The position numbers and the translations under genes were made by a program. 64,000 bases of DNA from Candidatus Berkelbacteria bacterium CG10_big_fil_rev_8_21_14_0_10_43_13. GTDB taxonomy: Bacteria; Patescibacteriota; UBA1384; XYA2-FULL-43-10; 1-14-0-10-43-13. The stretch's first letter is position 1. Each line of letters begins with the position of its first letter. The notes beneath the pieces are model-generated. The model was not told the origin of the DNA. It was given only the letters and a program-made list of their open reading frames with translations, and made no database searches. Below are positions 10,867 to 58,306 of the stretch, piece after piece. The stretch spans positions 23,546 through 87,545 of the forward strand of contig PEZW01000009.1 of the NCBI GenBank assembly GCA_002773985.1, in the 5' to 3' direction.

Positions 10867-12741
10867 ATGAATATTCGTAACGTGGCGATAATCGCCCACG
10901 TTGACCACGGTAAAACGACCTTGGTTGATGGATTGCTGAAGCAATCCCAGACTTTTCGGACCAACGAAGCAGCGATGACCCAAGACCTGATCATGGATAG
11001 CAACGATCAGGAACGCGAGCGCGGCATCACTATCCTGGCCAAGAATACGGCGATCAATTACAAGGGCGTCAAGATAAATATTATCGATACGCCCGGTCAC
11101 GCCGATTTTGGTGGTGAGGTCGAACGCACGCTATCGATGGCCGACGGCGCTATTTTGCTGATCGACGCGCAGGAAGGCCCGATGCCTCAGACAAAATTTG
11201 TGCTCAAAAAGGCTTTTGGCCTCGGTTTGAAAATCATGGTCGTCATCAACAAAATTGACAAGATAAACGCCGACATTCCCAAAACGATCGACAAAACTTA
11301 CGATCTTTTCCTCGAACTGGCTACCGACGACGCTCAGCTCGATTTTCCGGTATACTACGCTATCGGTCGGAGCGGTAAAGCTTGGGATGAGCTGCCCCCA
11401 AAGGGGGCCCCTTCGGGGCCTGAGGATGAAAATCTTGAGGCAAATTTGACACCAATTTTAGACGGAATTATCACTCATATTCCTGAACCAGTGAAGAATG
11501 ATGAAGCACCGCTCCAGATGCTTGTTTCGGCTCTTGAATACGACACCTTTATCGGCAAACACGCTATCGGCAAGATCAAAGGCGGTATCGCCAAAGCCGG
11601 TATGCCGGCTGTACTGGTAAACGAGTCCGGCGTAGCCGAATCAGGTCGTATCGAAAAAATATTTGTAAATCTTGGTCTGAAAAAAGTCGAAGTCAGCGAG
11701 GCGGCTTCCGGTGACATCGTTTCGATTGCCGGTTTGAAAAAAGTTTCCATCGGCGACACTATCGCCGATCCGAGCAATCCAGCCGCACTCCCAGCGATAG
11801 CCATCGAGGAACCGACTCTGAATATTTCGATTTATGCCAACACTTCTCCATTTGCCGGACGCGAAGGAAAATACGTCACTGCTCGCCATCTCCATGATCG
11901 AATCGTCAAAGAGCTTGAAACCAATGTTTCGATGAGACTGGCGACCGATGAAAATGGCCCCAAAGGGGCCCCCGTTGGGGGTGAGTTTATTCTTTCTGGT
12001 CGAGGCGAACTTCACCTGTCTGTTTTTATTGAAACCCTCCGCCGTGAAGGTTATGAACTCCAAGCCGGCAAACCAAAAATTATCACCAAGGAAATTGATG
12101 GTGTCGTTTCCGAACCGGTCGAAGAATTAACAGTTGATGTCGCCACTGATTCCGCTAGCGCGGTAATCGGCGAGATCAATAAACGACGCGGCATCTTGAT
12201 GCACCAAGAAGAAAATTCTGACGGCTCGACTCGCCTAGTTTTCGAGATCACCACCCGCGGTATGCTCGGTCTACGAAATATTTTGCTGACGATCTCGAAG
12301 GGTACAGCCGTGATGAATTCGATATTTCTACGCTGGGACAAGATCGGCGGAGCCATTCCCAAACTGCGCAACGGCGTTCTGATCGCTTTCTTGGCCGGCA
12401 AGGCCGTCTCCTACGGGCTAAATATCGCCCAGCTTCGTGGTACGACTTTCATCCCACCAAACACTGACGTTTACGCCGGTATGATTGTCGGGCTCAATCA
12501 ACGCGAGGATGATCTCGAGATCAATATCTGCAAAGAAAAACAACTGACCAATATGCGCGCCTCAAGTGCCGACCAGATTACAGTTCTGACTCCCCCAACA
12601 ATTCTCTCACTTGAACAGTGCATCGATTTTCTAGAAGATGACGAACTACTCGAAGTCACTCCTAGTAATTTGCGTTTGCGCAAAAAGATTCTTGACTCCA
12701 ATCTCCGAATCAAAGCCCGAAAACCAAAAGCAACCGCTTAA
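10867..12741 (+). CDS. typA: Translational GTPase TypA/BipA
   Basis: [10 protein letters not shown]1 motif, DTPGH, NKID. Length 624 aa, including two short GC-rich in-frame inserts. Confidence 0.9.
11396..11421 (+). repeat. GC-rich double hairpin (cccccaaaggggg + ggccccttcggggcc) inserted in-frame in typA
   Basis: Encodes [12 protein letters not shown]-type and AAA loops. GC content is far above the surrounding sequence. Confidence 0.5.
11956..11981 (+). repeat. Second GC-rich hairpin (ggccccaaaggggcc) in-frame in typA
   Basis: Encodes PKGAPVGG. Same motif as 11396-11421. Confidence 0.5.
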
Positions 12742-12967
12742 TTACTGACTCTCAATATAGTTAAATTTAAAACATCGTAGATTGGACACTATCCTCCTTC
12801 GCCAAAGCTTCCCACTTCGTCAAGACTATGCATGACAAGACGGGAGGACACAGTCGCGCGCAATCTACATAATTACTCACTCACCCTTAGAGTGTCATCT
12901 CGACCGAACACACCAAGATATTTCAAACACTAAAAGGATTTTTTCTGCTGTATTAAACGTTTTTCTG

Positions 12968-14155
12968 TTATTGGCAAAACGATTCGCCATCTAGAGTACT
13001 ATCACCTAAGACAGTGTTGTATTTTGAGGTGTACGAAGATTTTAGGCTGGATGAGAAATAATTATAAGGACAAACTGCAGTTGTGTTAACCCAACTAGAA
13101 TTTAAAGCTGGATCAGAAGCATAGCGGTTTGGCGTGCTGGAATTGTAAACTCCAAAATCCCAGTTTCCAGCCAGAGCAGTCCCAGTTGTATATCCGATTA
13201 ATTCACCTGCACTAAAACTAATCTGAGAAATATTGTAGTTTGTTACGGAGCTTGCCGAAGGCGTCGGCCCAAAAGTGTCTTTGATCGATTGAACAGGATC
13301 CGTAATATGCCCCAATCTAAGAGTTACCTCACAGCTAACCTTGAAATCCATGCCATAATCAGACGGATCGCTTCCATGGGATAAGAATACTCCACCGTAA
13401 AGTTTCATCGCAACAGGGGCATAGATTGGAACATTTTGATGTTGCGTATCCACATAGCTGTGAGGCTTAAATTGCCCAGAAACATATCGAGGAGGAATTA
13501 TCACCTCATTGATCTTGCTTATATCCGTAAGATGACTAGTAAAGACTGGGCTTGTGTTGCTTTGACAATCGCTGCTGCTTGAGCTTGCGGAAGAAATGGT
13601 ATCAGTTGAGGCAGTTGAGGCTTGAGTAGAACTCTGACTAGAAGAAGATGTGGTTTTTTTGCTCTTGCTTGAAGCAGCCTGAGCAGCTGCTATTTTTTCC
13701 TCCTCGGCCTTTGCTGCGGCAGCAGCAGCAGCAGCTTCGGCTTCTTTTTGCTCATCAATCTTTTTCTGACAATCAGAATAGCGGTTTTGGGCCTGACTGT
13801 ATCTTGGAAAGTTCTTTTCTATTTTACCTAGAGAATCCAAGCATCCTTGCCAATCGCCCGCCCCGAAACTAGCTTCCCCTTCTACAATTATCTTGGCTTG
13901 ATCTTCAAATTTCAGAGCTATTTTCTTTTTTGGAATAATCTTTTTGTCATTCCATTTCCATTTCTTTAGAGCTTGATCATACCTGATGACGGCAGCACTA
14001 TAATCTCCACCCTTTACTAGCGACTCTGCTTCTTTGATCAGACTATTTGATTGATGATATGACGCGCCGACAAACGAGCAAGAAATAACGACCAAAATCG
14101 CAATTACAATTATTATTAGCACTTTTTTGAATTTGAAAAACGTAAATGACATCAA
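12968..14155 (-). CDS. Membrane-anchored protein with a TPR-like N-region, a poly-Ala/Ser linker and a C-terminal domain of unknown function
   Basis: 395-aa ORF with an N-terminal TM and low-complexity AAAAAAAA and SSSS tracts. Confidence 0.5.
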   Translation of the reverse strand: MMSFTFFKFKKVLIIIVIAILVVISCSFVGASYHQSNSLIKEAESLVKGGDYSAAVIRYDQALKKWKWNDKKIIPKKKIALKFEDQAKIIVEGEASFGAGDWQGCLDSLGKIEKNFPRYSQAQNRYSDCQKKIDEQKEAEAAAAAAAAKAEEEKIAAAQAASSKSKKTTSSSSQSSTQASTASTDTISSASSSSSDCQSNTSPVFTSHLTDISKINEVIIPPRYVSGQFKPHSYVDTQHQNVPIYAPVAMKLYGGVFLSHGSDPSDYGMDFKVSCEVTLRLGHITDPVQSIKDTFGPTPSASSVTNYNISQISFSAGELIGYTTGTALAGNWDFGVYNSSTPNRYASDPALNSSWVNTTAVCPYNYFSSSLKSSYTSKYNTVLGDSTLDGESFCQ

Positions 14156-56753: not shown

Positions 56754-56872
56754 GGTCTTTCTCCCTTCACGTTGAAATGACTCTATTTTTATACCAAAAA
56801 ATCAACTTTTTTTCAACCAAAAAAGACTCACTAACATGTGAATCTTTTTTTAAATCATTTGCCCAAATTTTT

Positions 56873-58306
56873 CTAAATATTTTTCTCGACGAAATATTTT
56901 TTCAATTCAGCAATTTTTATTCGCTCCTGCTTCATCGTATCACGATCACGAACGGTGACGGATTTGTCTTTTGCAGAGTCAAAATCGACCGTCAGACAAA
57001 ACGGTGTGCCAATCTCATCCTGGCGACGATAGCGCCGGCCAATCGAACCGGATTCATCATAAAAAGTCGCAATCCCCGCTTGACGCAGGTCTGCAATAAT
57101 ATCGTGGGCCAGCTCCGGCATACCCTCTTTTTTCATCAGCGGAAAAACAGCCACTTTGATAGGAGCCAATTTCGGATGAAGCCGCAAAGTTACCTCGCCT
57201 ATTTCTCGTCCGTCTTTGCCATCAGATTCATCGTATGCATCCACCAGAAAAGCCAACATCGCACGATCAACTCCCATCGTCGGCTCGACGACATAAGGGA
57301 TATATTTTTTTCCATTGACTTCATCGAAATATTTCTGATCAATTCCAGAGTGTTTTGAATGTTGTTCAAGATCAAATTTTGTCCGTTGTGCCACACCAGC
57401 CAACTCCGACATGCCAAACGGAAAATCGTATTCAATGTCGGAAGTTCCAGCTGAATAATGTGAAAGCTCACTCTTGTCGTGCGCTCGAATTGTTAAATTT
57501 TCATCTCGAATGCCAAAATCAGTAAAAAATTCTTTCCAGCGCGCCAACCAATAAGTAAACCACTTTTTCGATTCATCCAGACTTGGCTCGACAAAATATT
57601 CAATCTCGGCTTGCTCAAATTCTCTCGTGCGAAAAGTGAAATTTCCCGGCGTGATTTCGTTGCGAAAAGCCTTGCCGATCTGACCGATACCAAAAGGGAT
57701 CTTAACCCGTGAAGATTGGGTAACATTTAGAAAATTGATAAACATCCCCTGCGCTGTCTCCGGTCGCAAGTACGCCGTCGAGGTCGAGTCCTCCGTCACG
57801 CCGATAAATGTCTTGAACATAAGATTAAAATTTTTCGCCTCAGCAAAATCATGCTCGCCACCACTTGCACATACCAACATTTCTTTCTCTCCGTCTGTCA
57901 TCCCGGACTTGATCCGGGATCCCGTCTCCGCGTTAGCGTCAGTATTAAATTTCGCTTTAATCTCCTGAACATGGTCTTCTCTAAATCTTTTGTGACATTT
58001 TTTACATTCAACCAATGGGTCAGTAAAAGAACCAATATGCCCGCTGGCTTCCCAGACTTTCGGATTTTGGATGATCGCCGAGTCCATACCGACAATGTCG
58101 TCACGCTCAACAACAAATCTTTTCCACCATTCGTTTTTCAGGTTTAATTTTAATTGAGATCCAAGCGGACCATAATCAAAAGCATTGGCAAAACCGCCAT
58201 AAATCTCACTTGCCGGATACACAAACCCCCGCCGCTTACACAGCGAGATGATTTTTTCCGTTTTGTTATTTGAATTTTCAGCCATTTCAATATTACCGTA
58301 GCCCAA
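56873..58306 (-). CDS. glyQS: Glycine--tRNA ligase (dimeric class II GlyQS type)
   Basis: Class II motifs, anticodon-binding C-domain. Embedded hairpin at 57896-57921. Confidence 0.9.
   Translation of the reverse strand: MGYGNIEMAENSNNKTEKIISLCKRRGFVYPASEIYGGFANAFDYGPLGSQLKLNLKNEWWKRFVVERDDIVGMDSAIIQNPKVWEASGHIGSFTDPLVECKKCHKRFREDHVQEIKAKFNTDANAETGSRIKSGMTDGEKEMLVCASGGEHDFAEAKNFNLMFKTFIGVTEDSTSTAYLRPETAQGMFINFLNVTQSSRVKIPFGIGQIGKAFRNEITPGNFTFRTREFEQAEIEYFVEPSLDESKKWFTYWLARWKEFFTDFGIRDENLTIRAHDKSELSHYSAGTSDIEYDFPFGMSELAGVAQRTKFDLEQHSKHSGIDQKYFDEVNGKKYIPYVVEPTMGVDRAMLAFLVDAYDESDGKDGREIGEVTLRLHPKLAPIKVAVFPLMKKEGMPELAHDIIADLRQAGIATFYDESGSIGRRYRRQDEIGTPFCLTVDFDSAKDKSVTVRDRDTMKQERIKIAELKKYFVEKNI
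57896..57921. repeat. TGTCATCC-family hairpin (tgtcatcccggacttgatccgggatc) in-frame within glyQS
   Basis: Encodes GSRIKSGMT on the minus strand. Same core as the intergenic copies. A related copy lies just upstream of the gene at 58324-58358. Confidence 0.45.

Follow-up and report, generated by a model that had tools for sequence, protein, structure and literature searches.

The stretch of DNA analysed here, termed the window, covers 64,000 nt (64 kb) of a Candidatus Berkelbacteria metagenome-assembled genome (MAG) of the Candidate Phyla Radiation (CPR), and this account concerns the short repeat DNA carried in frame by three of its conserved genes: typA, murD and glyRS, which encodes glycine--tRNA ligase. 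The genome has a G+C content of ~42%, and the encoded TypA is 100% identical to the NCBI protein 'translational GTPase TypA [Candidatus Berkelbacteria bacterium CG10_big_fil_rev_8_21_14_0_10_43...]'. An initial annotation had described the repeat stretches in the three genes as palindromic mini-insertions of one kind; every sequence it described is present, within 1 nt of where it had been placed. The genes and their repeat features, including a TGTC-tagged repetitive extragenic palindrome (REP) in glyRS, are as follows.

10867..12741, plus strand: typA/bipA, 624 aa; PDB BipA matches, E = 4e-173
11395..11420, plus strand: typA insert 1, CCCCCAAAGGGGGCCCCTTCGGGGCC; CCCCC-AAA-GGGGG / (GG)CCCC-TTC-GGGG(CC); adds PPKGAPSG within a CCN (Pro) codon
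11956..11981, minus strand: typA insert 2, GGCCCCAAAGGGGCCCCCGTTGGGGG; the element of insert 1 inverted; adds GPKGAPVG within a GGN (Gly) codon
48615..50075, minus strand: murD, 486 aa; PDB MurD 3lk7, E = 9e-56; Pfam Mur_ligase_M/C on homologues
49590..49650, minus strand: murD loop insert, ~51 nt, 17 aa AKFLISNVKSNPKSQIP; sense strand (AATTTCT)2 AATGTCA AATCA (AATCCCA)4
49653..49681, no strand assigned: murD palindrome, 13+3+13, perfect; GTTCTCTAATATT-gaa-AATATTAGAGAAC; native helix codons SSLIFSILEN
56873..58306, minus strand: glycine--tRNA ligase (alpha2 type; glyRS), 477 aa; PDB GlyRS, E = 1e-147; NCBI names of homologues
57880..57965, minus strand: glyRS hypervariable zone between the ECKKCHxRFRxDH knuckle and C..GGEHDF; 65 aa here vs 36 aa in the shortest relatives
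57896..57923, plus strand: glyRS TGTC-REP, TGTC-ATCCCGGA-cttga-TCCGGGAT-CCC; antisense to glyRS, read as GSRIKSGMT on the minus strand

All of the inserts are in frame, and in predicted structures all of them fall in coils of low predicted local distance difference test score (pLDDT) between secondary-structure elements. Alignments with orthologues confirmed that the extra residues are lineage-specific and coincide with the repeat DNA, and no same-length conserved segments were found in unrelated lineages. The idea of a single phenomenon did not survive this comparison: three kinds of repeat DNA are present, namely an untagged 24-nt family in typA, a REP in glyRS and a heptanucleotide array in murD. 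Loci and homologous proteins used in the comparisons below carry L and P numbers, respectively.

The 24-nt double hairpin of typA and its copies elsewhere

In an alignment of 120 TypA homologues (70-100% identity), both typA inserts are exact 8-residue (24-nt, 8-codon) insertions, PPKGAPSG after ...WDEL and GPKGAPVG after ...TDEN. Both are found only in the window protein and in P0002, a homologue of 89% identity from a different metagenome, and are absent from the other 118. The sites are filled in the window and in L001, and empty in L084 and 117 others. Comparison with the empty sites of L084 (85% identity) shows that each insertion measures 24 nt and lies inside one codon, of the form CC[...]T (proline) or GG[...]T (glycine). 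The redundancy of the ends makes a 2-nt target duplication indistinguishable from a 24-nt element without duplication. Inserts 1 and 2 are reverse complements at 24/26 nt (an inverted repeat pair, 92% complementary) and match at merely 16/26 positions in direct alignment (manual count), which identifies them as the same element present twice in opposite orientations.

Insert 2 is identical at 26/26 nt in L001, although the gene is only 79.6% identical and about half of the third codon positions differ, and one stem change in insert 1 leads to G.U pairing in the sense direction. The AlphaFold model places residues 177-184 (insert 1) in a coil within a block of pLDDT 58-77, and insert 2 (residues 364-371) lies between two strands, with pLDDT <50 at residues 362-371. 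The string CCCCnnnGGGG occurs four times in the 64 kb, every time within the two typA inserts. Repeat units between genes, which the initial annotation had suggested looking for, are present in the window for the REPs and for the heptamer module of murD, described below.

Copies of the element are found well beyond typA. The 26-mer CCCCCAAAGGGGGCCCCTTYGGGGCC recurs in frame in DprA, AlaRS, DnaJ and other genes of Peribacteria, Saccharibacteria and related MAGs. A search with the pattern CCCCAANGGGGGCCCCTTNGGGG, a 23-nt core, over contigs of one genome per species gave 13 matches, against a chance expectation of ~0.3-3 estimated by ourselves from base composition. Seven matches are in Peribacteria MAGs, one each in a Saccharibacteria, a Berkelbacteria and an Acidobacteria MAG, and three in "bacterium" MAGs without a phylum name; at least 9 of the 13 are in named CPR MAGs. 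Two matches lie on two contigs of one Peribacteria MAG. Most of the 13 share the full 26-mer CCCCCAA[ACT]GGGGGCCCCTT[CT]GGGGCC, and the 23-26-nt core is present in 15 copies at 14 loci. The double hairpin has the consensus C4-5 RAA G4-5 C4-5 NTY G4-5.

The conserved genes that carry the element in frame encode DnaJ (in its G/F region), DprA, AlaRS, a SecDF-like protein and PolX, and about 5 of the 13 copies lie outside long open reading frames (ORFs). In the DprA of a Peribacteria MAG (L090), the 8 residues PKGAPFGG fall exactly on a gap in the alignment with PDB 3uqz. A GGN or CCN codon is the place of insertion in all five cases resolved at the DNA level (typA twice, DprA, AlaRS and DnaJ). 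The element is a multiple of three in length and, by inspection, free of stops in all six frames; depending on orientation it encodes P-K-G-A-P or G-P-E/K-G-A-P-F-G-G. It has no tag and is unrelated in sequence to the TGTC REPs, and is a REP of neither tagged superfamily. A literature search found no paper containing the 24-mer sequence, and both the near-identity across CPR phyla and the exact 8-codon insertions appear to be undescribed. Carriage by phages was also considered, and finds no support in the viral contigs, which gave 0 matches.

A tagged palindrome in glyRS and heptanucleotide arrays in murD

The glyRS hairpin consists of a TGTC tag (57896-57899), a stem of 8 bp that opens with AT, a loop of 5 nt (cttga) and a CCC tail. 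The CGTC-tagged REPs are defined by the tag CGTC, often TGTC (or CCTC), a stem of 8-9 bp with A-T in the first and second positions, a loop of 4-5 nt, an unpaired tail of about CCA and frequent dimers; they are also found inside genes, include RPE-4 and RPE-6 of R. conorii and dRS3 of Neisseria, and have no dedicated transposase known (Di Nocera, De Gregorio & Rocco 2013, PMC3733652). Its tag, AT-starting 8-bp stem and 5-nt loop fit this definition, its tail being CCC against the consensus CCA, and the glyRS hairpin is, as judged from its sequence, a member of the CGTC/TGTC-tagged REP superfamily. The likeness to Rickettsia palindromic elements (RPEs) noted at the outset therefore holds for this hairpin, through RPE-4 and RPE-6 (PMC3733652); none of the inserts has the size of the classical RPE-1.

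An 8-bp stem by itself is not beyond chance (stems of at least 8 bp: 22 observed vs ~7 expected), and it is the tagged hairpins that are, with 14 GTCAT+hairpin sites (hairpin starting at AT) in the window vs 3.8 in Markov simulations. Eight of these 14 are canonical, with (C/T)GTC, a stem ATYC..., ...GRAT and then C; seven of the eight are intergenic, and TGTC or CGTC precedes all of them. One further canonical copy lies in another 10 kb of the same genome. The other copies have loops of 3-5 nt (10-14 nt in some intergenic ones), and tails vary from CCC in the glyRS copy to CCA in L101 and at window position 10700, CCG in L100, and CTT or CTA in others. Across eight aligned copies the first two stem pairs (A-U, U-A) are invariant (8/8), 96.8% of stem cells are paired (0/500 shuffles reach this value) and compensatory changes occur at 4/8 pairs (5/500 shuffles), a count biased upward since the set was partly chosen by a perfect-hairpin scan. 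Copies and REP-bracketed elements outside glyRS include the following.

287..320, plus strand: intergenic TGTC-REP, first of an inverted pair; stem ATCCCTGC
340..374, minus strand: intergenic TGTC-REP, second of the inverted pair; stem ATCCCGCA
9084..9109, plus strand: intergenic REP copy, GTCATCCTgagcttgtcgaAGGATC
10696..10850, plus strand: 155-nt structured element just upstream of typA, bracketed tGTCAT...ATGACa
10699-10725, plus strand: canonical REP opening the 155-nt element, TGTC ATTCCCGC gaag GCGGGAAT CCA
43157..43225, no strand assigned: inverted REP pair, 43157-43185 on the plus and 43201-43225 on the minus strand

REP-like ends bracket highly structured spacer elements of 75-215 nt. 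The 155-nt element is absent from the same spacer of L001, where the empty site reads GTCA at the junction. The REP of glyRS is also found within other genes: it shares a 25-nt identity with GTCATCCCGGACTTGATCCGGGATC in the murD of L102 (GCA_041643075.1), where it is read in another frame as IPDQVRDD. The AlaRS gene of L097, from a CPR-like MAG (L097:1659-3530), has three separate mini-inserts: a TGTC-REP dimer in frame, HCHSELGSESRSRNEFGMT; another cluster of REPs, SVIPTKVEGSLDIARDD; and the 24-nt element, read as GPEGAPFGG. The archaeal AlaRS structures in the PDB have diverged too far to fix the exact position of the L097 insert.

The zone of glyRS that holds the REP varies from 36 to 84 residues among homologues of the REP/heptamer type (within a set of 120), and a few homologues have a different, domain-sized insert of ~144-148 residues there. 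The antisense-REP module [TG]GS[RLQ]I[KE]SGMT is present in the window protein and in P0244, P0251, P0268, P0285 and P0300. Other relatives at 83-89% identity have heptamer-derived low-complexity sequence, a shorter loop or a different hairpin, so that the module is present or missing among relatives of similar divergence. In the syntenic L002, the zone is equal in length and contains a wholly different 22-aa stretch with the hairpin CCTCCCCTC-gga-GAGGGGAGG. Among REP copies in glyRS, that of L100 has a compensatory pair (CCCAGA/TCTGGG), and those of L098 and L101 have one stem mismatch each. The glyRS of L100 also contains a loop-less GC-rich palindrome, TCCGCCAGCTGGCGGA, nested between identical heptamer units (L100:1255-1270).

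In murD, Tandem Repeats Finder reports TTTGGGA x4.6 at 49590-49621 and ATTAGAA x2.4 at 49629-49645, both with 100% match. The extra length had been put at about 25 residues and is 17, as measured both by the 17-residue gap against the solved structure 3lk7 and by the distance from GTKGKG to AGNIG, which is 47 residues here vs 30 in the base state. The predicted structure shows the insert extending a helix and then forming a loop with pLDDT <50 at residues 152-157. Among relatives the loop has from 0 to >60 extra residues, and each lineage has its own heptamer unit, as in these examples.

L004: (AGATCCA)3
L008: (AATTCCA)5
L013: (AGWATAC)4
L020: (AGTTCTC)4
L005: (NGGAACA)4
L028: (AATTTAA)4

Between the window and L002 the unit differs throughout the array (AATCCCA x4 vs AGATCCA x3), a concerted change. 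The same sequences are also dispersed between genes.

21897..21931, minus strand: intergenic murD insert module, TTCTAATTTCTAAT-tgacctaaata-AATCCCAAA
50736..50751, minus strand: intergenic heptamer pair directly downstream of mraY, TTCTAATTTCTAA

Parts of the module are found at 50736 and also upstream of tRNA-Arg at 25640, and a period of 7 accounts for 14 of the 46 Tandem Repeats Finder rows of the window, nearly all 14 of them intergenic. The murD insert consists for the most part of heptanucleotides in tandem, derived from a dispersed module that slippage would have expanded; it is not a palindromic element. Heptanucleotides are reported to be the commonest class of long simple sequence repeats (SSRs) in prokaryotes and are attributed to polymerase slippage, and coding DNA is noted to contain few repeats whose unit length is not divisible by three (PMC4679880). 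As an alternative origin, 7-bp target-duplication footprints left by hairpin insertion and excision were considered and are not supported: flanking direct repeats of at least 5 nt accompany 4/244 hairpins of Berkelbacteria-like loci vs 2.6 after shuffling. The only two clear cases among the 244 are the L100 palindrome in glyRS and a second loop-less GC-rich palindrome, CCTGCCTACCGGTAGGCAGG, nested between identical heptamers just after murD (L013:3419-3438).

Two further loci bring heptamers and hairpins together. At ~7227 of L104, which belongs to the same genome and lies ~2.8 kb past the right end of the window, TTCTAAT heptamers abut half a typA element, aaatttctaatttctaatttCCCCCAAAGGGGagtc; at the Berkelbacteria locus L092, a full 24-nt element has TATTAAG on both flanks. 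Given these two arrangements, heptamer arrays and hairpins tend to co-locate.

The 29-bp palindrome adjoining the murD array had been counted as inserted DNA, whereas it lies outside the insertion: it encodes the native helix that follows the P-loop, with no change in length. It is exceptional as DNA, since stems of at least 13 bp number 4 in the window vs 0 expected from Markov simulations, and its RNA fold has z = -6.3. In the same codons, L008, L020 and L028 have perfect palindromes of 12-13 bp with two compensatory double changes relative to the window, and the encoded residues change with them (K to E, K to N). No 75-nt stretch of the gene is better conserved relative to L002 than the one made up of the palindrome and the first heptamers (96% vs a mean of 76%). 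Scans for an internal promoter or terminator at the palindrome gave a single promoter-like and a single terminator-like match, each on the antisense strand and at about the level seen in shuffles. The persistence of the palindrome can be read in two ways: selection may act at the nucleotide level, or a mutational process, template switching within a quasi-palindrome, may keep restoring the match between the arms. A hairpin beside a slippage-prone array would fit a hot spot of fork stalling.

Origin of the inserts and comparison with known repeats

The explanation favoured here, with a probability of roughly 60%, is that miniature selfish repeats and replication slippage generated the inserts, of which selection has kept those that are in frame, free of stops and placed in permissive loops. 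Short repeat DNA abundant in the spacers of the lineage would also have entered surface loops of essential genes, where a copy would survive by being in frame, stop-free and encoding a flexible, hydrophilic or Gly/Pro-rich peptide; selection would remove copies that are out of frame or in structured parts of the protein. The 24-nt double hairpin would insert at a CC/GG dinucleotide and hence into Pro or Gly codons. The TGTC REPs occur as spacer singlets, inverted pairs and brackets of the 75-215-nt elements, with one singlet in the glyRS zone, and the arrays would derive from the dispersed TTCTAAT...AATCCCA module, expanded and homogenised by slippage beside the hairpin-forming palindrome of murD. 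Both the 24-nt element and the TGTC REPs may spread as selfish non-autonomous DNA via single-stranded-DNA hairpins, mobilised perhaps in the style of IS200/IS605 elements and REP-associated tyrosine transposases (RAYTs) or by another enzyme. A more specific proposal, that the double hairpin CCCCCAAAGGGGGCCCCTTYGGGG is an ultra-small mobile element circulating among Berkelbacteria, Peribacteria and Saccharibacteria, targeting CC/GG and shaped to be harmless in coding DNA by its 3n length, six open frames and Pro/Gly linker, is put forward tentatively, with the odds somewhat against it.

Several observations weigh against mobile repeats as the source. Pfam scans of the unannotated ORFs (40 proteins) revealed no transposase (Y1/HUH, IS110 or other) in the 64-kb window. 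Mobility is deduced from distribution, because ~77 kb of the host genome, including the window, are readable; within these, the 24-nt element has two full copies and one half copy. It is also missing from viral contigs, as noted above. Composition-matched shuffles fold as stably as the typA hairpins (z +0.6 and -1.2), but such scores are uninformative for them because any G/C run folds, and the case for typA depends on alignment and dispersal. The selected sampling behind the REP covariation belongs here too. Finally, typA insert 2 and the murD palindrome with its heptamers are conserved above the flanking coding sequence, which is not expected of purely neutral junk.

This conservation leads to the view that the inserts are selected functional elements, either mRNA or DNA hairpins (which might, for example, serve to process or stabilise the transcript, make translation pause between domains, or bind a protein at the murD palindrome) or functional loop peptides. 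The compensatory changes that keep the murD palindrome in more distant relatives, the unaltered typA insert 2 of L001 and the pairing-preserving stem change of insert 1 all agree with it, and many REPs are described as transcribed and acting as RNA elements (PMC3733652). However, presence is patchy among close relatives, the mismatch-bearing copies of L098 and L101 are decaying, and one and the same element turns up in genes that are unrelated to each other, in either orientation and in more than one frame. No Rfam family corresponds to the inserts, promoter and terminator scans stay at background, and 118/120 TypA homologues work without them. A selected function is considered an unlikely cause.

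Purely local mutation, by slippage and intrastrand template switching at hot spots in tolerant loops and with no mobile element, accounts well for some of the same data. The murD and glyRS zones are hot spots where the array or hairpin differs by lineage, the heptamer unit shifts in concert, heptamers are the SSR class attributed to polymerase slippage (PMC4679880), and the native murD palindrome stays perfect through paired changes that alter amino acids, as template switching predicts. It fails for identical 25-26-nt sequences across genes, frames, orientations and phyla, for a conserved TGTC tag and CC(A) tail that lie outside the stem, and for the intergenic copy of the murD module; the presence of the same insert sequences at non-homologous sites within one genome, already partly seen, also counts against a local origin. 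As the whole explanation it is improbable. An error of assembly or sequencing, with the GC-rich hairpins and repeats as chimeric or erroneous MAG stretches, or mis-called genes, was considered as well, since the source is a MAG and assemblers classically stumble at short repeats and hairpins. The sequence across typA and glyRS is, however, reproduced at 99.98-100% identity in three independent assemblies from other samples (ERZ27293400, ERZ27293386 and SRR6240789), and the inserts are for this reason not assembly artefacts. Diverged relatives from other samples have the same inserts plus ordinary substitutions, and long conserved ORFs stay intact across every insert, which leaves artefact with next to no credibility.

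Among known systems, the RPE-1 elements of Rickettsia are the obvious precedent; Ogata et al. are said to have described them in 2000 as palindromic selfish DNA that lies in frame within conserved protein genes, at surface sites where function is not disturbed. They measure roughly 100-150 bp and add several tens of residues. In-frame insertion into conserved genes at fold-compatible positions is shared, but the inserts here are 24 nt (typA), ~28 nt (glyRS REP) and ~51 nt (murD), adding 8-17 aa, in a different lineage and with no sequence similarity. RPE-1 is set apart as 'longer palindromic insertions' in PMC3733652. The glyRS REP and the intergenic copies of the window resemble the CGTC REPs of that paper in tag, stem, loop, dispersal, inverted pairs and short in-frame peptides within genes. 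They differ in host, a CPR bacterium here as opposed to five phyla and mostly alpha-Proteobacteria (PMC3733652), and in arrangement, since the published dimers are mostly head-to-head (PMC3733652) whereas the pairs here have their tags outward. Unlike the published REPs, several copies here bracket the structured spacer elements. Intragenic REPs and RPEs are already known, and the same kind is found here in a new lineage.

For the GTAG REPs and REPINs, mobilisation by RAYT (Y1/HUH) proteins is the accepted hypothesis (Bertels & Rainey 2011, PMC3116915). Short hairpins, a conserved unpaired tag and inverted doublets are shared, and those elements are thought to be moved in trans as single-stranded hairpins. 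The tag is GTAG there and TGTC here, with the typA element tagless, and REPINs are almost wholly extragenic; no RAYT/Y1 HUH Pfam family was found among the ORFs of the window. The nearest analogue of the typA element is the class of small dispersed repeats (SDR, 21-27 nt) of Nostoc and Anabaena, which Elhai et al. reportedly described in 2008 as hairpin-capable, mobile-like and non-coding. A size of ~24 nt, hairpin potential, near-identical copies at unrelated sites and filled versus empty sites are common to both. SDRs are, however, cyanobacterial and unrelated in sequence, whereas the 24-nt element is nearly identical across CPR phyla and consists mainly of exact 8-codon insertions in conserved genes. 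The GC clusters and double-hairpin elements (DHEs, as in Allomyces) of fungal mitochondria are GC-rich tandem double hairpins in an AT-rich genome, coding regions included. The DHEs offer another analogue, yet they are organellar, longer and unrelated in sequence. Heptanucleotide repeats elsewhere, namely the cyanobacterial short tandemly repeated repetitive sequences (STRR), the long SSRs of Mrazek et al. 2007 and TAACTGA of Beggiatoaceae (PMC4679880), share head-to-tail 7-nt units, slippage and abundance in spacers; they are mainly intergenic, whereas the arrays here also lie inside essential genes (murD, glyRS) with the frame kept.

Neighbouring features and implications for CPR genomes

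Other unusual stretches were observed in and around the window. In the mraY-murD spacer, ~500 nt (50130-50650) have 51% G+C vs ~42% for the genome and, on either strand, fold much more stably than shuffled sequence (z -5.0 and -5.8). Rfam gives no match for this stretch, and the syntenic spacer of L002, a close relative, lacks it; a structured RNA and an inserted element are both possible identities. Known RNA families were searched for with Rfam at gathering thresholds, which returned solely tRNAs in the window and nothing credible in this spacer.

Two genes are flanked by inverted repeats. A 127-aa gene of the 23S-rRNA-intervening-sequence-protein family (PF05635, Avd-like; 4659-5042, minus strand) is bracketed by 35-nt inverted heptamer arrays at 4637-4671 and 5039-5073, and the whole (4637-5073) looks like a small cassette. 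At 59054-59767, a 179-aa gene with a PaaX_M (Cas2-like) domain (59159-59698) has flanking 41-nt inverted repeats that are 85% complementary, and the syntenic L002 has a NUDIX gene between recO and glyRS in place of it. Tandem repeats include a perfect 21-bp unit x4.5, TTGATGGTGTCGACAAGCGTC, at 31108-31201 within ORF 30681-31418 (weak match to coiled-coil DUF7310), and dense arrays of 9, 17 and 26 nt (ACTTTATAA-like, ~10 copies) at 23333-23422 in the AT-rich spacer of 22.7-24.0 kb, with a weaker copy at 14715-14749. A 44-nt, 73% copy of the 3' part of tRNA-Trp (14490-14533) lies at 14425-14468 beside a perfect hairpin with a 17-bp stem (14393-14429), and could be an integration-site remnant. 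About 6 kb past the right end of the window, the same genome encodes a LAGLIDADG_2 homing endonuclease (L104:3860-4462), which may be intron-borne.

CPR genomes are usually described as small and streamlined, with few mobile elements, and no publication that connects REPs or palindromic repeats with CPR/Patescibacteria came up in the literature searches. The Berkelbacteria lineage studied here carries several families of miniature repeats, tolerated inside essential genes of translation and cell-wall synthesis, which extends the Rickettsia theme of "selfish DNA in protein genes" to a distant radiation. Such repeats account in concrete terms for part of the unexplained insertions and differences in length among CPR housekeeping proteins, with effects on alignment, phylogeny and structure prediction, and the presence or absence of inserts supplies useful markers for strain tracking. 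With their small size and short list of candidate genes, CPR genomes could be a good place to look for the enzyme that mobilises CGTC REPs. If the proposal made for the 24-nt element is true, it would colonise spacer-poor genomes by residing in essential genes, and, provided that it does move between phyla, few known elements of the sort would be as small.

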